Origin: Candidatus Bathyarchaeota archaeon
Lineage (GTDB): Archaea > Thermoproteota > Bathyarchaeia > 40CM-2-53-6
Direction: 5' to 3'
NCBI GenBank assembly: GCA_963833125.1
Contig: CAWHWX010000012.1
Span: 32,001 to 96,000, forward strand
DNA: 64,000 nucleotides
The notes below the pieces were generated by a model. That model saw nothing but the letters and a program-made list of their open reading frames with translations, made no database searches and was not told the DNA's origin. Below are positions 54,347 through 62,068 of the stretch, piece after piece; the stretch's first letter is position 1; each line of letters starts with the position of its first letter. The translations under genes were made by a program, and so were the position numbers.

Positions 54347-54646
54347 TTATTCGTAGACGAGTTCTCGTTCCAGAGGCCTACCTTTCCGATACTTCCATAT
54401 CTCTACCCTTCCGCGATAGGCCTTGCCCCAAAGCTTCAAGGTTCTTCGTTCTGCTTCCGTTGCCCTTCCTTTCCCGCTCTTCACCTGAACCATAAGAATT
54501 CTTCCCGCCCGACCTGCGAAGATATCTACGGGACCATGTGAGGCTGCGCTACGACTGCAAAACCATCCTTCCTCCCGTAGTTTCCTTAAAACTTGGTATT
54601 CGCGGCTACGACCTCGTGTGTACGGCGTCGAGACCATTCTTTCCAC
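54347..54646 (-). CDS. Hjc-like PD-(D/E)xK nuclease
   Basis: G.SRE..V...LREEG....RSAAS.GP.DI.A.......QVK. Confidence 0.8.
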   Translation of the reverse strand: MERMVSTPYTRGRSREYQVLRKLREEGWFCSRSAASHGPVDIFAGRAGRILMVQVKSGKGRATEAERRTLKLWGKAYRGRVEIWKYRKGRPLERELVYE

Positions 54647-54902: not shown

Positions 54903-56558
54903 TTGGGGTCTTCAGGGCGATTGCTAGCGATTATTGCCTTATCCATCATGTTCGCCGCTCTCCATGTATCCTACGCATTTGCTGACAACAGCTACACAGT
55001 TACTATCACAGTTCAGGGTTTACCGTCTTCCCTTTCAACGAAAGTCTACGTTGATGGGAGTTATAATGGAACACTGAGCGGTGGGAGCTCAGACACGTTA
55101 ACGCTTTCAATAAATGACAACCCGCATGCCATCTTGGTTGATTCTTATGTGCAAGGGACCGGAAATGGGACACGATATTACGAGAATGATACAGTGTGGG
55201 GTATCAGCTCACCAGGCAGCCATATGTTCACTTACGTCGCTCAATATTTTCTGTCCGTGGAAACCGCCTTTAGCTCAGCTACAGGCCAATCGTGGTACAA
55301 CGCAGGTTCGACTGCTCAGGCCGTGCTTAACGATCAACAAATTGTCGAGGGGCAAGGAACGCGAAACATATTCACAGGTTGGTCTGGCGACGCGACAGGG
55401 ACGCAATTGACTTCGAATGCAATAATTATGGACGGACCAAAGGTCGCAACCGCGAATTGGAAAACCCAGTTTTACTTAACCATTGAATCTAACCCAGCGA
55501 ACGTCACTAGCTTGACAGGTTCTGGGTGGTATGATTCGGGCGTAGACGCTAACTTTTCTGCTGTTATGGTAGCGTCTGGGACATCGAATACGCGCTTGGA
55601 GTTCGATCATTGGAGCGGTGAATACACAGGGCAGCAACCTTCGGGGATGGTGTTGATGGATCGTCCAAAAATTGTCAGTGCCAATTATCTTGTTCAATAC
55701 CTTCTGACCGTTATGTACTCCTCACCGAGCGTTTCATCCTCATACAACGAGACTCACGCAGGTTGGTACGCTGCGAATTCTAGCGTGCAACTCGGGCCCG
55801 CACCATCAATTATCAATTTGAGTACCGTGGAGCGGTTGCGATTTATCGGTTGGTCTGACAACGGTTCTGTATCGAAGAATCTATCGTACTCTGTTTTGGT
55901 AGTTGGGCCACTAAACGTAACTCTCTCCTACACGACGCAATACTATGTTGACGTACGCTCTACATACGGAACGGCTTCCGGTTCGGGTTGGTACGATCGA
56001 GGGACAACCGCAACGATTACCTCCCCAACTACTTCAGGCACCTGGCCCGTTTCGTATGCGCTGACCGGGTGGAGCGTTGACCCGCCCACCGGAACTCTGA
56101 ACAGTACAGAGAATTCGTGGATGTTAACCGTCAATGGGCCATACGTAGTACAGGCAGAATGGGGAGTAGATTACGTCCCACTGATCCTGCTCTTTGGCGG
56201 GAGCGCCGTCGCGTTTGCTGCTGTGGGAGTTACTGCGGTGGTAGTTCACAGGAGGAGTAAAGTTACCGGCAGATCTACTGCTCCTCGCCCGCAAAAAACC
56301 GGCCAGGCTATGTTAGGGTCGCTGGTAGTTTGCAACAGTTGCGGTAACAATGTGCCGAAGGGCGCGGAGTTCTGCGAGAAATGCGGAGCCCCGATCGCGC
56401 CACTCATCGAACCTTCAACGGAGAATAAGGTATACGACTACATCGTAAAACACGAGGGTATAATTTCCTTGAGCGAAGCATCAGCAGATCTTGCGATACC
56501 TGTTGAGCAGCTAAAGGAAATAACTGAGCGTTTGAAGAGAGAGGGCCGTTTAAGTTAG
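54903..56558 (+). CDS. Single-pass membrane protein: extracellular beta repeats, TM, zinc ribbon, C-terminal wHTH (PCI-like)
   Basis: Signal peptide; four QY(F/Y)L.V..GSGWY..G / F.GWS repeats; TM; CNSCG..FCEKCG; VYDYI.KH.G.IS.SEA..DL.I. Confidence 0.8.
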   Translation: MGSSGRLLAIIALSIMFAALHVSYAFADNSYTVTITVQGLPSSLSTKVYVDGSYNGTLSGGSSDTLTLSINDNPHAILVDSYVQGTGNGTRYYENDTVWGISSPGSHMFTYVAQYFLSVETAFSSATGQSWYNAGSTAQAVLNDQQIVEGQGTRNIFTGWSGDATGTQLTSNAIIMDGPKVATANWKTQFYLTIESNPANVTSLTGSGWYDSGVDANFSAVMVASGTSNTRLEFDHWSGEYTGQQPSGMVLMDRPKIVSANYLVQYLLTVMYSSPSVSSSYNETHAGWYAANSSVQLGPAPSIINLSTVERLRFIGWSDNGSVSKNLSYSVLVVGPLNVTLSYTTQYYVDVRSTYGTASGSGWYDRGTTATITSPTTSGTWPVSYALTGWSVDPPTGTLNSTENSWMLTVNGPYVVQAEWGVDYVPLILLFGGSAVAFAAVGVTAVVVHRRSKVTGRSTAPRPQKTGQAMLGSLVVCNSCGNNVPKGAEFCEKCGAPIAPLIEPSTENKVYDYIVKHEGIISLSEASADLAIPVEQLKEITERLKREGRLS

Positions 56559-56995
56559 AAGAACGGATTCATGCCGTGTTCTGGTTGCTGGTACGTCGCC
56601 GGGTACTGTTGGTATTGGTACGGTTGGTACTGCTGTTGGTACTGCTGGGACTGCGCACTGAACTTCGGAGCTAGGCTCCAATAGCATTCCATGCAGAAGC
56701 TTAGAACTCCGTATTGCTTGTTGCAACCTGCACAAATCGACCTGCCGCACCGCGAACAAACAAATGCAGATGGTAGGTCATGGTGGTAGTAGCAGCTGCC
56801 CGGAGTTTGGATCTGTCTGGGAGTGTACATTGGAGGGGCTCGTGGGGTTGGAACGGTCTGGCCAGTTAATGGGGATTTCACTTCAACTTTGACTGGGGGA
56901 AATCTTGAAAGTGCAGTGCCGCAACTGAAACAGAATCGTGCGTCCTCGGCGTTTGGTCTGCCGCATGATTGACAGGGAATCATATTCCGAACCAC
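56555..56995 (-). CDS. Zinc ribbon + B-box-like zinc finger protein with Q/Y-rich tail
   Basis: CQSCG..N..DA.FC.SCG; C-x2-H-x8-C-x2-C-x4-C-x2-C-x9-C-x2-C; PPMY. Confidence 0.8.
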   Translation of the reverse strand: MVRNMIPCQSCGRPNAEDARFCFSCGTALSRFPPVKVEVKSPLTGQTVPTPRAPPMYTPRQIQTPGSCYYHHDLPSAFVCSRCGRSICAGCNKQYGVLSFCMECYWSLAPKFSAQSQQYQQQYQPYQYQQYPATYQQPEHGMNPFF

Positions 56996-57142: not shown

Positions 57143-58393
57143 TTAAGTCAATCGAAGTATTGATTCATGGAGTTCTTGGTTCTTGCCCTCAGCCAAGACT
57201 CTCAGGTAATCCCCCCGCTTGCCAGCCCTACGAAGTGGTGATTTACCCTCTATTTTCCGTGTCCCCTCCGAGTTTTCGGCGAAAATCGTGAGCTCTCCAT
57301 CCCCAAGGTTAGACGCTTTACGAATTGATTCTTCTACCGTGGCCTTAGCAGCACGTGGGCTATCTAGCGGTAGGTCGTTTCGCGGGACGACGATCCTTCC
57401 CGTTCCGTCCTTCCCGCAAACAATGCATCGCACGCTTCGTTTGAGATCCATGGTGCTGTAGCGGTTGTTCTTGAGATCGACGAACAGGATTGATCTGAGC
57501 GGTTGACCAGTTGTTTCAGGCCACTTCGTGGTTGTCTTGTATGCCTCTAAACCGAGGATTACTTTGACCGCTTCTTGTGCGAGGATAGACGAGACTAGGG
57601 AAATTGATGTCGCAAAGGAAGGAACGGTTTCTTGTTCCAGGGGTCCCTCGCATGGGTTGCGGAGGCCGGCGATGCTCGAATACTGGTTCGCGGGAAACAT
57701 GCAAACTGGGCAAGCGTCATCGGGTGGTAGGTAGGAGTGAACCCTTCCGTTCAATCCAATAATTCCCGCGTCGATCAGAGGAATTGAGTATTTTCGGCAG
57801 GTTTGAGTAAGGAAGATTCGTGAGACGACATTGTCTAAACCGCAAACGATCACTTGGGAGTCCAGGTAAAGTTTCAATGGCATACGTTCGAGATCGCCGC
57901 GGTAAGCGGTCGTTGTTACGAATGGATACTTCAGATGAAGGTTCTTAGCCAAAAATTCGGCCTTGTTCCTGCCTAAGTCTTTAGGTTGGAAGAAGATCAT
58001 TCGGCTTACGTTTGAGAGTTCGATACGGTCGCGGTCAACAATTACGATTCTCCCGACTCCCAGCATGGCGAGGTTTTTAGCAGCCTCGTTACCTATAGCC
58101 CCCGCGCCCGCCAAAAGCACCGTTGCGCTTCGAATCTTCTTCTGTCCTTCGGCGCCCCAGACAAGTAGTTGCCGAGCCCAGAGATAGTCTAGGATGATTG
58201 GGTCCTTTTCGGTTTTGAGTTTGGCAACGGTTGATGTTTCTGCCAGTCGCTTACCGTGGAACAGGCATTTTGTAAGGTCAGATTCTATGCCTAGTTTTCT
58301 ACAGGCTAATTGTTTGAATTCCCTGATCGTTCTTGTAGGGGGTAGATCAATCTCAATTTCCTTATACCGCGGGATAGACGCACGAAGTTTCAT
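57143..58393 (-). CDS. Ubiquitin-activating E1-like enzyme (ThiF family) with N-terminal ubiquitin-like domain
   Basis: GAGAIG, D.DRIELSN..R, CGLDN..SR, CPVC/CIVC zinc pair, putative catalytic RNPC; N-terminal beta-grasp pattern (TIREFKQ....LGI......LFHGKRL). Confidence 0.9.
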   Translation of the reverse strand: MKLRASIPRYKEIEIDLPPTRTIREFKQLACRKLGIESDLTKCLFHGKRLAETSTVAKLKTEKDPIILDYLWARQLLVWGAEGQKKIRSATVLLAGAGAIGNEAAKNLAMLGVGRIVIVDRDRIELSNVSRMIFFQPKDLGRNKAEFLAKNLHLKYPFVTTTAYRGDLERMPLKLYLDSQVIVCGLDNVVSRIFLTQTCRKYSIPLIDAGIIGLNGRVHSYLPPDDACPVCMFPANQYSSIAGLRNPCEGPLEQETVPSFATSISLVSSILAQEAVKVILGLEAYKTTTKWPETTGQPLRSILFVDLKNNRYSTMDLKRSVRCIVCGKDGTGRIVVPRNDLPLDSPRAAKATVEESIRKASNLGDGELTIFAENSEGTRKIEGKSPLRRAGKRGDYLRVLAEGKNQELHESILRLT

Positions 58394-58986
58394 TATCGCG
58401 GCGTCCGATTGCCCTTACCGGGGATGGTGAACGTCACTAAATCACCAGGTTGAGAGAGTACCGTTGGGGCTCTCGGGATAGGGACTATGTTGAAGTGAAC
58501 GGTATCGTCCGATTCCTCTTTCGCTTTGTGCCTAGTCATTCTCGGAAACCCATGTGATCGGCAAACGTCGGCAGCTTTCAAGGCGCGGGGGTTATCGAAA
58601 ACACTTTGTGGGTTCGGGTCCGTTAGGAGGTAGTGTAGTGAATTGACGACCGAAATTAGTTTGAGCCGTGGGTCCCATTTTTCTCCGAGGACAGATACGC
58701 AAACTGCGTTTGGTATGTTCGGGACAATATTCGGGTGAGAGATATCGGTGAGCCAAGTCGCCACGGGAGGCTTCAATGGATATTCGGGTGGCAGGTCGAG
58801 TTTGAATCGATTCCAGTTCACGTACTCGGTGAAGGGCCAGACTCCTTTCTCGGCAAGTCGTCTCACCTCTCCTTTCTCGCACCGGATTAGGCCCTCGAAT
58901 TGGGTAGGGGGGTCATTTAGCGCTGTGATTGTCGGGAATTGGTGGTTGAGGAGGCTCTTCTCCTTGTAAAGCAGGGTAGCGTCCAA
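58393..58986 (-). CDS. Ubiquitin-conjugating enzyme E2
   Basis: F.L.LP.EYP.KPP...W.T.I.HPNI......VC.SVL...W.P...L..V..SL..LL.DPNP. Confidence 0.93.
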   Translation of the reverse strand: MDATLLYKEKSLLNHQFPTITALNDPPTQFEGLIRCEKGEVRRLAEKGVWPFTEYVNWNRFKLDLPPEYPLKPPVATWLTDISHPNIVPNIPNAVCVSVLGEKWDPRLKLISVVNSLHYLLTDPNPQSVFDNPRALKAADVCRSHGFPRMTRHKAKEESDDTVHFNIVPIPRAPTVLSQPGDLVTFTIPGKGNRTPR

Positions 58987-58998
58987 GCGGTTTCAGCC

Positions 58999-59241
58999 CT
59001 ACCCGCCAATTATGTTGTATGGCATGAGGGCGAGTTGCGCATTTTCTGGAATGCCGGATCTCGCTACGGTAGTGCCTTCGTCTAATATTGCGCCTCCGTA
59101 CATGAGAGCGACCGTTGTTGGGTCAACCCCAAATGACGTACACACCTGCTGCTTAATCTCTGCAACCGTGTGGTCAGGGATTACGTCGATCTCTGCCAGA
59201 CCTGTCTGAGGGCCTATGGGGGCTTGAATGAATAATTTCAT
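58999..59241 (-). CDS. Ubiquitin-like modifier ending in GG
   Basis: 80 aa: IDV.P..TVAEIK..., LMYGG.IL.E..TV...GI...A.L.L, C-terminal IIGG-stop. Confidence 0.9.
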   Translation of the reverse strand: MKLFIQAPIGPQTGLAEIDVIPDHTVAEIKQQVCTSFGVDPTTVALMYGGAILDEGTTVARSGIPENAQLALMPYNIIGG

Positions 59242-59296
59242 CTTCTATCGTTCACCTCCACTCATGCTGCCTTGTCTCTCCATATAGGAGCCTAAA

Positions 59297-60835
59297 CTAC
59301 CTTACTGTAAGCTCGACAGTTAGGGCGTGTACGAGCCCGCCTCCAACTGCCTCTATCGTGATAGGGTAGGTCCCTCCCTTTGTAAAGGCTGGTATTGTTA
59401 TTTGGATTGTTATTGTAGTCGTTCCGGGGCCTCCAGGTAGAACAGTCGGGTTGCTTGTCAAGGTATACTTTGCTCCTTGAGGGAGGTTCAGCAAGGTTAT
59501 GTTCACAGGGTCTACGAACCCTTTTTGGAGAGTTAACCTAAGATTAAGTGTCGCCTTTGAACCGGTCTGTACTGTGACACTGGTTGGCGAGATTTGCAGT
59601 GAGAAATCGGCTACCGTTATGTTAAGTACTGTTTGTCTGGTTACATACGGTGATTGAGAGGGTAGGTAGTCGGCAATCAGAGCTATTGGATAGGTGCCGT
59701 TAGGGGTAGTCGAGTCTGCGGTCACATTCAAGCTCACGGTTGTTCCTGTAGGAGCAGGGTTTGTCGAGAATGTGATCGTTAAGCCGCTGGGGTTTCCGTT
59801 GGCCGAGAGCTGGACTTGTTGTGCGAACTCATTGATTGACACTATCTGGATCTTTGTGACTGCATACCTCGTTCTGTACACTGTGAGCGAGCTGGTTTGT
59901 GGTAGGATGTTGAAATCCGCAATGACGATGTGGTATGTGTTCGTGTTGACTTGCTTGCCTGTAGAATCTGATGCTCTGATGTAGTAGGTGATGTTTCCGG
60001 TCACCTGATTACTTGGGATGACGTAGCTGAATTCTCCGGTCCCAATCGAATTCATGGGGACTTGTGTGGTTGGGCCCTCGGTTGCTGGGCCATAAACCAA
60101 GGTTACGTTATGCGCAGGACCAGTTGTGTTGGCAGTAATCGTAATTGGTGTTCCAATGGTCCCTACCGAGACGGGGTTATGAATGATGGCTACCGACGAT
60201 TGCGGGGATGTCTTGTAACTATAGATTAGGCCTCCAAATACTGCCAGCAACACAACCAGAACAACCAAGACCATGGCCAGCGCTGCACGCTTTGTCAGGA
60301 CTTGTCGTGCAGGTGGTCGTCGTCTGACTTCTACAGTCGGCGTGGGCGCTACAACCGTAGCTGTCGTTTGACGCGGTGGGGTGGCGTCCTTTGGATCAGA
60401 GTAAACTATTATGTTCGCTTCGGGGATCCGAATGGCTTTGTCAGTTCCTGGGATCACCCTGAAGTATCCGACTTCTCCGTTTCTTGAATCAACCACCAAG
60501 CCTGTAATCAATGCTGAGAATTGCTGTAACTTTTTTTGAGTTGAAATGTCCGTCTCGGAAAAGAATAATCCATCCCTAGTGTGTGAGTGGTACCATCCTA
60601 CGATGTTGCCTTTGAGGCGTCCAGAAACGAGTTGATCGGCTATGATTGCTATGGAGCCGGGCGGTAGTGTGGCGCGATGAGGTTCGGATGAGAATTCATG
60701 AGTGGTTGAGTCTTCGATGATTATTGTGTCGTCTTGGAGTTTGCCGAGTAGTAGCCCAATAATCTCGGTTTCGGTGTCCCGTGCAGCTTGGACAATCCTG
60801 TCCTTGACAGGTTTCGAGATGCTGACGTAGGACAT
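59297..60835 (-). CDS. JAB/MPN+ (JAMM) metalloprotease fused to TM and extracellular Ig-like domains
   Basis: EIIGLLLG...GWYHSH-x7-S-x2-D; TM at about aa 185-207; two DF.L..SP.S.TV..G..A..GTYPI beta-sandwich repeats. Confidence 0.9.
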   Translation of the reverse strand: MSYVSISKPVKDRIVQAARDTETEIIGLLLGKLQDDTIIIEDSTTHEFSSEPHRATLPPGSIAIIADQLVSGRLKGNIVGWYHSHTRDGLFFSETDISTQKKLQQFSALITGLVVDSRNGEVGYFRVIPGTDKAIRIPEANIIVYSDPKDATPPRQTTATVVAPTPTVEVRRRPPARQVLTKRAALAMVLVVLVVLLAVFGGLIYSYKTSPQSSVAIIHNPVSVGTIGTPITITANTTGPAHNVTLVYGPATEGPTTQVPMNSIGTGEFSYVIPSNQVTGNITYYIRASDSTGKQVNTNTYHIVIADFNILPQTSSLTVYRTRYAVTKIQIVSINEFAQQVQLSANGNPSGLTITFSTNPAPTGTTVSLNVTADSTTPNGTYPIALIADYLPSQSPYVTRQTVLNITVADFSLQISPTSVTVQTGSKATLNLRLTLQKGFVDPVNITLLNLPQGAKYTLTSNPTVLPGGPGTTTITIQITIPAFTKGGTYPITIEAVGGGLVHALTVELTVR

Positions 60836-61187
60836 GAGTTTGTTTCCCTTTACTTTCTTATCTTATAGCTTGATTGGATGGCCTAATCTTTCGACATAGG
60901 ATGATATGGATTACGCGGTTTCCTGGCGTCCATCTGGGCATTGTATAGAGTGAAGCACAAGATGGGGAGCTGCAGTCTAGCGTTGTGAAGCATGGTTCAA
61001 AGCGAACAGATGTTATTGGGCCCGGGTTAATGGAACAACAGAATCATGGATTAGGGACAGCTTGTGGATGTTTGAAACTATCCAGCAGTTCTAACAATCT
61101 TTTCGGACTGAAGCTCACTAGTCAGCTTTAGGGCTCGCTGGTCCCCACTGGAGACTGAGCGTCCCGGAAGTTTACAGGGAAGAAGTG

Positions 61188-61205
61188 AAAGATAAGAAAA
61201 AAAAA
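61188..61205 (-). terminator. Oligo-T terminator candidate
   Basis: T9 tract on the minus strand about 20 nt after the 61226 stop. Confidence 0.5.
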
Positions 61206-61225
61206 TTTGGGGGTGCCCTACGCTT

Positions 61226-62068
61226 CTATCGTCCAAGCATGCCGAGTATTCCGCCCAGCACACCTAAGACGAAGCCGGCCACAAAGCCTCCACCGATTAT
61301 GAGGCTTAGCACTGCCATCGGGAAGACGACGATGCTTCCGATTGTTCCGTAGCCAAGCAGCATCAGTATTGACCCGATTACCAGTATTAGCCCTATGATT
61401 ACGCCGATTGCGAATGATAGGCTAGCAGGGCCGAGTGCTGGCAACCAGAAGAATACTCCGACCCACATCGCGTAGAACCCAGGCGCAAGCAAAGCTGCTG
61501 CGTTGAGGATTACAAGTATCCCAGCGATTACTGAGAGAATGAATCCCCATAGTGATCTGGGTGACGAGGGGGCGTACATTGGCGGTGGTGGATACACTGG
61601 GTAGGCAGCTGCTGGTGGAGCCATCGGTGGTGGACCGAATGCTGGTCCAGCCATAGGTGGAGCCATCATAGGTGGCGCTGCCATAGGCGGTTGGCTATAG
61701 GATTGAGCCATTGGCTGTTGGGGCGGGCTATAGGCGGCTTGTGCTGGTTGTTGTGCTACCATTGGAACGACTCCTGCGTAACATTGCGGGCACAGGACGA
61801 GATCCATGTATGCTTTTGAGTCATCGCAACAAATCGACCTTCCACAGCGGTTGCAGACGTATACTGCTGGGAGGTTGGGGTGATAATAGCATTGTCCTGG
61901 TGCGGGCACACGAATAGGTCCGCCTTGGCTGACTGGTGTTACTACGCGGACGGATGGGACTGGTTTGAGTGAGGGGACCGCGCTGCCTGCGAGAGATGCT
62001 CCACAGCTTGAACAGAATGATGCGTCATCACGATTGTTGTAGCCGCATGATGGGCATTTCTTGACCAT
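61226..62068 (-). CDS. Zinc ribbon + B-box-like + Pro-rich linker + multi-TM membrane protein
   Basis: CPSCG..N..DA.FC.SCG; CYYH-x8-CNRC-x4-C-x2-D-x9-CPQC; PPPPMY; C-terminal hydrophobic helices ending GGGF..GF.LG.LGGILG. Confidence 0.82.
   Translation of the reverse strand: MVKKCPSCGYNNRDDASFCSSCGASLAGSAVPSLKPVPSVRVVTPVSQGGPIRVPAPGQCYYHPNLPAVYVCNRCGRSICCDDSKAYMDLVLCPQCYAGVVPMVAQQPAQAAYSPPQQPMAQSYSQPPMAAPPMMAPPMAGPAFGPPPMAPPAAAYPVYPPPPMYAPSSPRSLWGFILSVIAGILVILNAAALLAPGFYAMWVGVFFWLPALGPASLSFAIGVIIGLILVIGSILMLLGYGTIGSIVVFPMAVLSLIIGGGFVAGFVLGVLGGILGMLGR

Follow-up and report, generated by a model that had tools for sequence, protein, structure and literature searches.

The window, the whole 64,000-nucleotide stretch of Bathyarchaeota DNA that was analysed, carries a ubiquitin gene cluster on its minus strand. 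In order, the cluster encodes a membrane protein with a Zn-ribbon and a B-box-like finger, a JAMM-TM-Ig fusion, a ubiquitin ending in Gly-Gly (GG), an E2, an E1 with an N-terminal ubiquitin-like domain (UBL-E1), and a second Zn-ribbon/B-box-like protein. The ubiquitin (80 aa, 58999..59241; Pfam ubiquitin, 2.2e-09) ends in NIIGG followed by a stop codon and is 82 to 99% identical among the related loci that hold one. The E2 (197 aa, 58393..58986; Pfam UQ_con, 3e-16) has a UBC fold with the HPN...C motif, and its best PDB matches are eukaryotic E2s (UBC), at about 1e-12. The E1 (416 aa, 57143..58393; Pfam ThiF, 9.4e-50) has its ubiquitin-like domain at residues 10 to 67 (Pfam ubiquitin, 1.1e-06) and best matches eukaryotic UBA1 in the PDB, at 1.6e-33. 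Only one free ubiquitin gene and one E2 were found in the genome.

Directly upstream of ubiquitin and in the same orientation lies the gene of central interest (59297..60835, minus strand), a single uninterrupted open reading frame of 512 aa plus a stop that joins a JAMM domain, a linker, a TM helix, and three Ig-like domains. The AlphaFold2 (AF2) model of the whole protein has a pLDDT of 85.5. Residues 1 to 145 (60401..60835) form a JAMM/MPN+ catalytic domain of the Rpn11-like type, identified by Pfam, PDB sequence match, and Foldseek and predicted to be cytoplasmic. Pfam JAB (PF01398) matches at residues 4 to 106 with an E value of 3.6e-11 and 43.3 bits (cut-off, 22.5), Prok-JAB (PF14464) also matches (1.1e-09), and the model has the MPN fold at a pLDDT of 86 to 92 over residues 1 to 150. 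An earlier note, made by a reader of the sequence, had pointed to an intact E...HSH-x7-S-x2-D motif at the N terminus. It is indeed there: a regex search places the zinc/catalytic motif H83-S-H85-x7-S93-x2-D96 at 60548..60589 (residues 83 to 96), the general base E24 lies upstream of it, and none of E24, H83, H85, S93, and D96 varies across an alignment of 45 homologues. Across that alignment (n = 45) the domain has a mean pairwise identity of 0.69, and its dN/dS in close pairs is 0.02 to 0.38.

The catalytic domain is followed by a basic juxtamembrane linker (residues 146 to 183, 60287..60400; 21% K+R) of about 35 aa. It is predicted to be disordered, with a pLDDT of about 40 and values below 50 at residues 156 to 180, and within it T165, P166, E169, and R171 are near-invariant in the homologue alignment. 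Directly before the TM helix comes RRRPPARQVLTKR, and there are six K/R in the preceding 20 residues and none in the following 20. The single TM helix (residues ~184 to 208, 60212..60286), read as an N-in/C-out signal anchor from hydropathy, the AF2 model, and flank charges, is the only hydrophobic peak of the protein (Kyte-Doolittle, 3.16; every other 19-aa window, at most 1.6). AF2 extends the helix over residues 182 to 209. It is the least conserved segment in the alignment of 45 homologues (0.36). The basic stretch ahead of a single TM segment that the earlier note described is thus present as claimed, and so are its roughly 300 residues of T/S-rich beta-sandwich repeats: the ectodomain (residues 209 to 512, 59300..60211) is 25% S+T and consists of three Ig-like beta-sandwich domains by AF2, Foldseek, and sequons. 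These domains lie at residues ~215 to 312, 316 to 409, and 411 to 511, with pLDDT mostly above 90, and Foldseek likens them to three-Ig arrays such as titin I67-I69 (2rik; E = 1.9e-11). The dN/dS of the ectodomain in 11 close pairs is 0.08 to 0.28. Neither Pfam nor the ESM Atlas (all scores at most 0.80) gave a recognisable ligand-binding family for it.

On which side of the membrane does the JAMM domain lie? The topology call was made from the positive-inside rule and sequon bias. Over 45 homologues, the N-flank of the TM helix holds a mean of 4.8 K+R and the C-flank 0.2; N-glycosylation sequons average 0.4 on the cytoplasmic side and 5.0 on the outer side. In the protein itself there are seven NxS/T sequons in the ectodomain and none in the JAMM domain. 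Because of this charge bias and the sequons, the prediction is a JAMM domain in the cytoplasm and three Ig-like domains facing outward, with one TM helix between them, as the earlier reader had supposed.

Is the fusion real? At least 98% of the protein is covered by 112 of the 120 best homologues listed in the database search, and the same fused reading frame occurs in more than 100 independent database clusters from several sources and as 26 complete copies in a 301-genome sample of the class. The fusion thus rests on independent assemblies, not on reads. A contig derived from a DNA library covers 59282-60280, which takes in the ectodomain and some of the TM helix, and no bridging piece over the JAMM-TM junction is found among the listed read-derived contigs that match the window; the proposed confirmation from homologues and reads therefore succeeded for the former and not for the latter. 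Contigs from two RNA libraries match ubiquitin (58860-59301) and, from the same two libraries, the 280-aa gene described below (61209-62063), each with at least 90% likeness, although an RNA-library contig is not proof of transcription. The body of the JAMM-TM-Ig gene has no such contig, a gap that proves nothing. None of the sequencing runs matched half or more of the sampled words. Could the gene nevertheless be a chimeric assembly, or a pseudo-JAMM that serves only as a ubiquitin-binding domain? The lack of a listed piece across the junction would fit an artefact, as would the 4 of 31 fused genes in relatives that a stop, a frameshift, or masked bases interrupt. Given the recurrence of the fused frame, the invariance of all the catalytic residues, and the low dN/dS of the JAMM domain, the chance of either is close to negligible.

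The nearest relative of known structure is CsRpn11 of Candidatus Caldiarchaeum subterraneum. It is the best match in both sequence (6fjv_A, E = 1.2e-11, followed by CSN5 and Rpn11) and fold (6fnn_A; target-normalised TM-score of 0.83, rmsd of 2.3, 29% identity), ahead of CSN5 (9eg8_E, rmsd of 2.8) and Rpn11 (5u4p_B, target-normalised TM-score of 0.79), and it has the same catalytic motif (PDB 6FJV/6FNN; PMC6043591 and PMC5654768). The NCBIfam desampylase model scores the query at only 23 bits, where its cut-off is 130. According to PMC6043591, CsRpn11 cleaves ubiquitin precursors and conjugates. Like the present gene, it is encoded beside a Ub-E2-E1 cluster, and its genome also has a second, standalone JAMM (CsJAMM). 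Here the standalone JAMM, of 145 aa (locus L002, 1384..1821, minus strand), falls across a branch from the operon JAMMs with an SH-aLRT of 94 in a quick, midpoint-rooted tree. The differences are considerable. CsRpn11 is a soluble protein of 202 aa, divergently transcribed from its operon (a layout seen on a locus whose JAMM resembles the PDB chain in a by-eye comparison), whereas the present gene, at 512 aa with a TM helix and ectodomain, is far from the small soluble size of about 200 aa of that type and lies upstream of ubiquitin in the same orientation. Where CsRpn11 has C-terminal helices, the present protein has the linker, the TM helix, and the three Ig-like domains. Ubiquitin, E1, and E2 are common to the two operons. 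In Caldiarchaeum a small RING finger serves as the E3, and Pfam recognised no RING domain among the proteins of the present operon. Finally, CsUb is made as a precursor of 87 aa and has to be trimmed, whereas the ubiquitin here already ends in GG. The earlier note had taken this last point to mean that no trimming is required, which holds in this genome and not in general: 26 of 53 related ubiquitin genes carry 1 to 9 residues after the GG.

The remaining genes of the cluster encode accessory zinc-finger proteins. The 280-aa protein (61226..62068; Zn_Ribbon_1, 2.2e-08) has a Zn-ribbon, a Cys/His-rich B-box-like finger, a Pro-rich linker, and three or four TM helices. Residues C4, C7, C18, C21, C59, H62, C71, C79, C92, and C95 are invariant in 32 sequences, and C74 is near-invariant. 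Its match adjoins the slot upstream of ubiquitin in 16 of 18 related contig loci and in 46 of 54 E2-positive genomes. Soluble and of 146 aa, its paralogue (56555..56995; Pfam DZR, 7.3e-07) has the Zn-ribbon and B-box-like finger alone and is kept after E1 in related loci. For both proteins the Pfam zf-B_box match is below the cut-off (0.082 and 0.012, respectively). On these sequence features the larger protein is a candidate membrane E3-like or adaptor protein. Its profile finds only the Zn-ribbon among PDB sequences (ArnA, 5a8i, E = 1.2e-3). A Foldseek search of its predicted fold (pLDDT, 71.5) against the PDB returned nothing at an E value of 0.001 or less and only weak LIM/Rim2 zinc-finger rows (E of about 2 to 5), and the B-box or RING-like fold is for this reason unconfirmed. 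No RING family is among the Pfam matches of the operon proteins; a genome-wide search with the zf-RING_2 profile had no match, but its positive control had none either, so that it carries no information. A complex prediction for the E2 (residues 1 to 160) with the cytoplasmic part of the 280-aa protein (residues 1 to 105) scored 0.00 against a mark of 0.32, which is no verdict. Convergent with the cluster, on the plus strand, is a gene for a 551-aa protein (54903..56558; Flg_new_2, 8.7e-10; Zn_Ribbon_1, 3.2e-06) with a signal peptide, an InlB-B-repeat ectodomain, a TM segment, a cytoplasmic Zn-ribbon, and a tail of about 55 aa. Its hydrophobic peaks are at residues 7 and 425, and what still matches it in distant families is limited to the Zn-ribbon and tail. 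An ESCRT-type membrane pathway was considered as the client of the cluster and is unsupported, since in this 87.8%-complete genome Snf7 matches below its cut-off (E = 4.5e-4) and Vps4_C is not found.

How constant is this arrangement? The same gene order recurs in related loci and, in the 301-genome sample, across nine families of one order, with an Hjc-like and a thioredoxin-like ORF as constant neighbours. The cluster is present in nearly all sampled members of several families, for example in 12 of 13, 7 of 8, 3 of 3, 4 of 4, and 4 of 4 sampled members of groups g1, g4, f2, f3, and f6, respectively. The slot upstream of ubiquitin could be read in 50 of the 54 E2-positive genomes, and its content varies. 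It holds JAMM-TM-3xIg in 31 (4 of them interrupted, the other 27 either intact or truncated by nothing but the end of a contig), JAMM-DUF998 in 3 (Pfam DUF998, E = 1e-19 to 1e-24), where a polytopic module replaces the 3xIg, a JAMM with nothing but a C-terminal TM anchor in 1, and adjacent but separate genes for a JAMM (156 aa) and a ZnR-TM-3xIg protein in 1. Ten operons have TM-3xIg without a JAMM, and in four the slot is empty. In other words, 15 of the 50 operons that could be read (3 + 1 + 1 + 10) have the ectodomain swapped, absent, or split from the JAMM, and in 4 more the slot has nothing. One relative (G063) has a Zn-ribbon ahead of the JAMM within the same ORF. More broadly, 51 of 77 cluster representatives that match the JAMM domain at an E value of 1e-10 or less have a TM-like segment, and the outer parts of such TM-bearing relatives include PKD, Big_7, CarboxypepD_reg, and DUF998. 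The survey of 50 operons thus identifies membrane tethering and a TM-3xIg partner as the conserved themes; dedicated coupling of a sensor to the enzyme is not conserved. And, since the JAMM is absent from the slot in 14 of 50, the system can do without a tethered eraser.

The reading we prefer, with confidence slightly better than even, is that the protein is an eraser anchored in the membrane and serving an archaeal ubiquitin cycle centred there, with TM-3xIg as an envelope scaffold or partner instead of a dedicated sensor. An Rpn11-like JAMM isopeptidase would sit on the cytoplasmic side of a single-pass protein, with three Ig-like domains outside, and would act as the eraser of the eukaryote-like cascade of Ub-GG, E2, and UBL-E1. 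That cascade may be centred on the membrane in this order of Bathyarchaeia, served by the polytopic Zn-ribbon/B-box-like protein, its soluble paralogue, and a putative type-I surface protein whose Zn-ribbon is cytoplasmic. The tether would most likely restrict deubiquitination to conjugates made on the membrane's inner face, and it could also serve ubiquitin recycling there. As the ubiquitin here needs no trimming, the reading that comes naturally is a deconjugase kept at the membrane. TM-3xIg would count as a separate component of the cluster, onto which the JAMM has been fused. What the sequences themselves show is how the protein is built, the signals of its topology, an intact active site, its conservation and synteny, and the swapping of modules; catalytic activity on the cluster's own ubiquitin, a membrane location of the substrates, and the role of the ectodomain are what we infer.

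What, then, do the Ig-like domains do? The purifying selection on them and their retention without a JAMM show that they have a sequence-specific role, which could be ligand binding. The earlier note had gone further and proposed a receptor. Its fusion, predicted cytoplasmic JAMM, and intact motif all stand, and the kinship to CsRpn11 fits them; control of activity by an outside ligand is not supported. On that model the Ig array would bind an external ligand or cell-surface partner, and clustering or dimerisation would switch or reposition the cytoplasmic JAMM. The predicted layout is receptor-like (extracellular domain, single TM, cytoplasmic effector), with an N-in JAMM, one TM, and three Ig-like domains; ectodomains differ between lineages (PKD, Big_7, 3xIg) as in receptor or adhesin families, and the ectodomain is constrained, as are linker residues T165, P166, E169, and R171. 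The 551-aa neighbour likewise joins a variable ectodomain to a conserved cytoplasmic tail, and receptor-type protein tyrosine phosphatases, in which an eraser is coupled to Ig/FN3 ectodomain arrays, may offer an analogous logic. We nevertheless judge this model unlikely. The linker is predicted to be disordered and conservation is lowest in the TM helix, so conformational coupling is improbable and only clustering could transmit a signal; the outer module is exchanged for the polytopic DUF998 in three operons and missing in one, TM-3xIg persists without a JAMM in 10 and as a separate gene in another, and neither Pfam nor the ESM Atlas pointed to a ligand-binding family for the ectodomain. It is similarly doubtful that the surface array, clustered by a ligand or envelope partner, positions or activates the JAMM and forms, with the membrane-embedded zinc-finger E3-like protein and the Zn-ribbon surface protein, a transmembrane ubiquitin module, which if true would mean ubiquitin-based outside-in signalling in an archaeon outside the Asgard group.

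The 10 operons with TM-3xIg but no JAMM invite another thought, namely, that TM-3xIg is itself the client of the cluster, as substrate or adaptor. Its tail would be modified or recruit the machinery, and a fused JAMM would act in cis, editing it and its neighbours or protecting them from ubiquitin-dependent turnover. Those JAMM-less forms have Pro/Tyr/Arg-rich cytoplasmic tails, the genome with separate genes has a Zn-ribbon on the TM-3xIg tail like that of the other accessory proteins, and G063 has one ahead of its JAMM. Yet the tails of the JAMM-less forms hold just zero to two lysines (counted by eye), and the empty slot in four operons together with other anchors for the JAMM (DUF998 or a bare TM) in four more means that TM-3xIg is not essential to the cascade; we regard the client model as improbable. 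Much less probable still is an antiviral conjugation system of the Bil or CBASS Cap2-Cap3 kind with a surface-exposed virus-sensing module. The operon content (Ubl, E1, E2, JAB peptidase) is that of Bil systems, the exposed ectodomains are variable, and the E1 adenylation domain matches the PADLOC E1-E2 and BilD models (3.2e-19 and 2.4e-08). However, this match is confined to a generic adenylation domain, PADLOC gives none for ubiquitin or E2 and only an E value of 0.004 for the JAMM, and the nearest matches of E1 and E2 are eukaryotic UBA1 and UBC. Constant neighbours and near-universal presence in several families also make for a vertical pattern, unlike that of patchy defence islands.

Among archaea, eukaryote-like E1/E2/E3 ubiquitin operons have been characterised in Caldiarchaeum, and there are reports of them from the Asgard group, with all parts described as soluble. 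This order differs in three respects: (i) a membrane eraser with an extracellular Ig array, (ii) a membrane-embedded candidate ligase partner, and (iii) no recognisable RING finger. If the activities prove true, there would be membrane-dedicated ubiquitin cycles in archaea without a recognisable ESCRT partner, as well as a simple, reconstitutable model of membrane-restricted deubiquitination, and the fused, split, swapped, and lost forms would provide a natural experiment on the contribution of the ectodomain.

Parts of this plan can be found in other known systems. Eukaryotic JAMM deubiquitinases are soluble subunits or are peripherally recruited, and we know of none with its own TM helix and ectodomain. 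USP30 and USP19 are eukaryotic DUBs anchored in the membrane by their own TM segment. Their catalytic fold (USP cysteine protease), like that of the receptor phosphatases (PTP), differs from JAMM, and the likeness is one of architecture by analogy only, with no homology. HvJAMM1 and PfJAMM1 are small soluble enzymes of E1-only SAMPylation; in these SAMP/JAMM systems, as for the standalone 145-aa JAMM, the modifier on which the JAMM acts is likewise a beta-grasp protein ending in GG. Bil and CBASS Cap2-Cap3 systems have a Ubl, E1, E2, and JAB peptidase in common with the cluster, which differs from them in its membrane-anchored DUB and conserved vertical synteny. Eukaryotic Rpn11, CSN5, and AMSH have the MPN+ fold and motif in common with the present protein, and AMSH acts at a membrane, the endosome (PMC2172215). 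An M67 isopeptidase is listed among Bathyarchaeota peptidases in PMC9534799. In the literature searched, no Bathyarchaeia ubiquitin operon or TM-anchored archaeal JAMM is described, though the supplement of PMC5654768 (gene-cluster classes I-III) may include such clusters; within that literature, the JAMM-TM-Ig cluster is a new form of the Caldiarchaeum-type system. Among four ubiquitin loci from other classes of the phylum, three have JAMMs of 202 to 211 aa without a TM segment, and one has a JAMM with a C-terminal hydrophobic helix.

The gene at 59297..60835(-) encodes 512 aa in one uninterrupted frame and joins a JAMM domain, an Rpn11-like metalloprotease domain, to one transmembrane (TM) helix and three immunoglobulin (Ig)-like domains. 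Its genome is 3.07 Mb in 39 contigs and 87.8% complete, and the window forms part of contig CAWHWX010000012.1. An earlier note had read from the sequence an intact JAMM motif at the N terminus, a basic stretch before a single TM helix, and a T/S-rich beta-sandwich ectodomain of ~300 aa, and all of these are borne out. Pfam places JAB (PF01398) at aa 4-106 (E = 3.6e-11, above the cut-off), with Prok-JAB also matched, and aa 83-96 hold the H-S-H-x7-S-x2-D motif. RRRPPARQVLTKR precedes the only strongly hydrophobic stretch (aa ~184-208), with six K/R in the 20 residues before this stretch and none in the next 20. Ser+Thr make up 25% of the C-terminal 304 aa, where seven N-x-S/T sequons occur; the JAMM domain has no sequon. 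In the AlphaFold2 model, for which 45 homologues were aligned (mean pLDDT 85.5), a domain of MPN-type alpha/beta fold spans aa 1-145 and is followed by a segment of low confidence (aa 156-180, pLDDT <50), a helix (aa 182-209), and three all-beta domains (~215-312, 316-409, and 411-511, mostly pLDDT >90). By Foldseek, the C-terminal part matches three-Ig arrays (titin I67-I69, E = 1.9e-11), and the N-terminal part matches CSN5, Rpn11, and CsRpn11, the Rpn11-like deubiquitinase of Caldiarchaeum subterraneum (6fnn_A, target-normalised TM-score 0.83, rmsd 2.3, 29% identity). Among solved structures, CsRpn11 also ranks first by sequence (6fjv_A, E = 1.2e-11).

On which side of the membrane does each part lie? 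In the 45 homologues, K+R number 4.8 on average (minimum 3) in the 20 residues that lead into the helix and 0.2 (maximum 2) in the 20 that follow it; sequons average 0.4 N-terminal to the helix and 5.0 (minimum 2) C-terminal to it. Taken with the positive-inside rule and the extracellular site of archaeal N-glycosylation, these biases predict a cytoplasmic JAMM domain and an Ig array outside, the orientation proposed in the earlier note. The modelled chain begins directly with the first JAMM strand, so the protein should have no N-terminal signal peptide.

A search of 5.8 billion clustered proteins returned 444 matches at E<=1e-3. Among the best 120 of these, 112 align over at least 98% of the query, with lengths of 501-534 aa and identities of 44-100%; their sources are NCBI, JGI, ENA, and Logan assemblies. 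A full-length relative is encoded in 12 of 18 loci from a one-genome-per-species scan, and in a 301-genome sample of the class such relatives occur in several families of one order, down to 29% identity. The earlier note had looked to homologues and reads for confirmation of the fusion. The homologues supply it: because many independent assemblies carry the same fused ORF, the fusion is real. Among reads and contigs, no single one crossing the JAMM-TM junction was found. E24, H83, H85, S93, and D96 are invariant in all 45 aligned homologues. The segments diverge at unequal rates: mean pairwise identity is 0.69 in the JAMM domain and 0.47-0.50 in each Ig domain, against 0.38 in the linker and 0.36 in the TM helix. 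In 11 close pairs, dN/dS (JAMM, 0.02-0.38; ectodomain, 0.08-0.28) indicates purifying selection on all parts of the protein. Database annotation of the family goes no further than "proteasome lid subunit RPN8/RPN11" or "Mov34/MPN/PAD-1 family protein."

The cluster begins with a gene for a 280-aa protein (61226..62068, -) in which a Zn-ribbon at the N terminus is followed by a finger rich in Cys/His, a Pro-rich linker, and 3-4 TM helices. JAMM-TM-Ig is second, immediately upstream of the one free Ub gene in the genome (-), which encodes 80 aa ending ...NIIGG-stop. Next come the sole E2 (58393..58986, -; Pfam UQ_con, 3e-16) and then a UBA1-like E1 with an N-terminal ubiquitin-like domain (57143..58393, -; Pfam ThiF, 9.4e-50), and a 146-aa soluble paralogue of the Zn-ribbon/finger protein (56555..56995, -) comes last. 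The nearest match of E1 is eukaryotic UBA1 (1.6e-33) and that of E2 is eukaryotic UBCs (~1e-12); the E1 ubiquitin-like domain (aa 10-67, E = 1.1e-06) is the only other Pfam ubiquitin match in the genome, and a second, standalone JAMM of 145 aa lies elsewhere. A convergent gene (54903..56558, +) encodes a protein of 551 aa, in which a signal peptide and an ectodomain of InlB-B repeats are followed by a TM helix and, on the cytoplasmic side, a Zn-ribbon and a tail of ~55 aa. The gene order is repeated in related genomes, often reaching Hjc-like 99-aa and thioredoxin-like ORFs, and Ub is 82-99% identical in those related loci that encode it. Two of the 18 loci (L005 and L010) carry the same full archaeal-type cluster and are filed as bacterial MAGs (Acidiferrales and Methylomirabilota); these labels are probably binning errors.

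What stands directly upstream of Ub in other genomes? E2 scored above the cut-off in 54 of the 301 sampled Bathyarchaeia genomes, 53 of them within the window's own order and one (G013) in another part of the class. The E2 neighbourhoods of all 54, the window included, were classed from local blastp matches, the structure of the ORFs, and TM helices called by a Kyte-Doolittle criterion, which is a crude predictor. JAMM-TM-3xIg is intact in 27 genomes (class A; one is cut by a contig end only) and broken by a stop, frameshift, or masked bases in 4 (A*). In 3, the JAMM is fused to a polytopic DUF998 (class B; PF06197, E = 1e-19 to 1e-24); one genome has a 212-aa JAMM with a C-terminal TM anchor only (C), and one a soluble 156-aa JAMM followed by a separate Zn-ribbon-TM-3xIg gene (D). 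Ten have a short Pro/Tyr/Arg-rich tail plus TM-3xIg without JAMM (E). The position is empty in 4 and unreadable at a contig end in 4. Four class E genomes of one family, f4, were searched (G091, G095, G230, and G022; loci L025, L027, L029, and L031), and each encodes elsewhere a TM-less protein of 298-336 aa in which a basic N terminus and a long stretch predicted as coiled coil precede a C-terminal JAMM whose motif is intact; comparable frames of ~300-336 aa occur in further f4 genomes. Among the relatives, the forms make up a natural series: fused, split, swapped, and lost. Since TM-3xIg is kept without JAMM in 10 operons, stands separately beside it in 1, and is under purifying selection, it appears to be a component in its own right onto which the JAMM has been fused. 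By the Rosetta-stone argument, fusion to an otherwise independent component suggests that the two are physically associated.

With the JAMM domain alone as the query, HMMER against the whole protein library matched 323 cluster representatives with E<=1e-3, of which 77 reached E<=1e-10. Among these 77, a single TM-like segment with >45 aa after it occurs in 42, a TM segment with a short tail in 7, and a polytopic arrangement in 2; the remaining 26 lack a TM segment, and the 18 of these that are <=200 aa could be standalone JAMMs or fragments. Among the outer parts are four PKD domains, Ig-like domains of the Big_7/Big_13/Kre9 kinds, CarboxypepD_reg, and DUF998. A quick maximum-likelihood tree was built from 157 JAMM domains over 149 columns, with SH-aLRT as the only support measure and a midpoint root. 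One of its two sides (78 rows, support 94) unites all class A, B, C, and D operon JAMMs with 34 TM-bearing and 13 TM-less representatives; on the other are the coiled-coil JAMMs, the standalone JAMM of 145 aa, and rows of the eukaryote-like CSN5 type. The DUF998 forms fall within A forms of the same genus, which suggests that the outer module was replaced. In other classes of the phylum, four Ub loci were inspected, and three of them have genes for soluble Rpn11-like proteins (202-211 aa), one resembling the CsRpn11 chain when compared by eye. The fourth (L093 5845-6645, -; genome G414) has a 266-aa Rpn11-like JAMM beside Ub-E2-E1 whose hydrophobic C-terminal helix, peaking at aa 240, is possibly a tail anchor.

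The protein belongs to the JAMM/MPN+ family, in the Rpn11-like branch of archaeal Ub operons, and with all catalytic residues present its JAMM domain is a predicted Rpn11-type isopeptidase. Passages of PMC6043591 and PMC5654768 describe CsRpn11 as cutting both Ub precursors and Ub conjugates and as specific for its own Ub. The earlier note held that Ub needs no trimming. This is so in the genome at hand, and deconjugation is therefore the predicted remaining role of its JAMM; it is not general, for only 27 of 53 related Ub genes end in GG-stop and the other 26 carry 1-9 residues after GG, so that at the family level precursor processing is likely as well. What distinguishes the enzyme is membrane retention, whatever the anchor. 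Each accessory protein of the cluster either is a membrane protein with a cytoplasmic Zn-ribbon or is a soluble paralogue of one. With the JAMM held at the membrane among such partners, we lean, on balance, toward a cluster that runs a ubiquitin cycle at the inner membrane face: E1, E2, and Ub would work there, and the anchored JAMM, as a tethered eraser, would remove Ub.

The earlier note had instead proposed a one-component receptor. Receptor tyrosine phosphatases have an analogous layout, that of a receptor-type eraser, and an ectodomain that is constrained yet varies between lineages is compatible with ligand or partner binding. An obligatory conformational sensor-effector unit fits poorly with a linker predicted to be disordered, a TM helix that is the least conserved segment, an outer module that is polytopic DUF998 or absent in relatives, and a TM-3xIg that is kept without the enzyme. 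Control of the JAMM by the Ig ectodomain, through clustering, is a possible but unlikely reading. It is also unlikely that TM-3xIg is a client or adaptor of the ubiquitin system. A Bil-like antiviral system is quite improbable, because PADLOC models match the generic E1 core only and the cluster is vertically inherited with fixed neighbours. An artefact or a dead enzyme is essentially excluded.

Returning to the tethered-eraser reading, how does the system compare with known ones? CsRpn11-type enzymes are small and soluble, unlike this protein, and Caldiarchaeum-type cascades are defined by a small RING finger, whereas Pfam recognised none in the proteins of this cluster. The architecture is real, conserved, and unexpected. 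The literature searched describes neither a Bathyarchaeia ubiquitin operon nor a TM-anchored archaeal JAMM, though supplements of PMC5654768 may list such clusters. The fingers of the 280-aa and 146-aa proteins match zf-B_box below threshold only (E = 0.082 and 0.012), profile-to-PDB and fold searches did not confirm a B-box or RING fold, and their Cys/His ligands are invariant or near-invariant in 32 sequences.

Four Zn-ribbons of the clusters (62000-62068, 56930-56995, and ~55470-55540; L033 3921-3990) share the spacing C-x2-C-G-x2-N-x6-C-x2-C-G, which resembles that of ubiquitin-binding NZF fingers. They match Zn_ribbon_RanBP weakly (Pfam E = 0.02) and, by profile, the ArnA Zn-ribbon 5a8i (E = 1.2e-3). 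Between Zn-ribbon and finger, aa 31-57 of the 280-aa protein are predicted to be disordered (pLDDT ~38-40) and include many invariant residues (K34, P35, P37, V39, V41, V42, P44, R52, P56, and G57); they look like a putative conserved short linear binding motif. The gap between this gene and the JAMM gene (60836-61225) is 390 nt, compared with ~266-318 nt in the two closest relatives (L068 and L069) and ~50-60 nt in most other loci. Partial copies of the 280-aa protein lie elsewhere in the genome (C34:66496-66897, C18:156156-156720, and C16:499489-499776; L084-L086 and L089): its TM domain within an 830-aa frame, a copy of the finger and TM part that contains an in-frame TGA, and a small ORF with Zn-ribbon and finger.

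Beyond its UBC core, E2 is extended at the C terminus (aa ~160-197), and in this extension F165, P171, and F186 are invariant and N166 and P169 near-invariant. The ubiquitin-like domain of E1 is N-terminal here and C-terminal in the Caldiarchaeum-type clusters presented in passages of PMC5654768. In distant families, only the Zn-ribbon and tail of the 551-aa neighbour still match and the ~540-aa ectodomain differs, which points to a second variable-ectodomain protein linked to the cluster. The 99-aa ORF at 54347-54646(-), with a weakly Hjc-resolvase-like N terminus (NCBIfam E = 9.7e-06, below the cut-off), is a conserved neighbour in most related loci with the flank present. Finally, the window has a GC-rich stretch because the complete 16S (20720-22269, +) and 23S (22445-25498, +) genes of an archaeal rRNA operon and an archaeal RNase P RNA (15434-15729, -) lie there.
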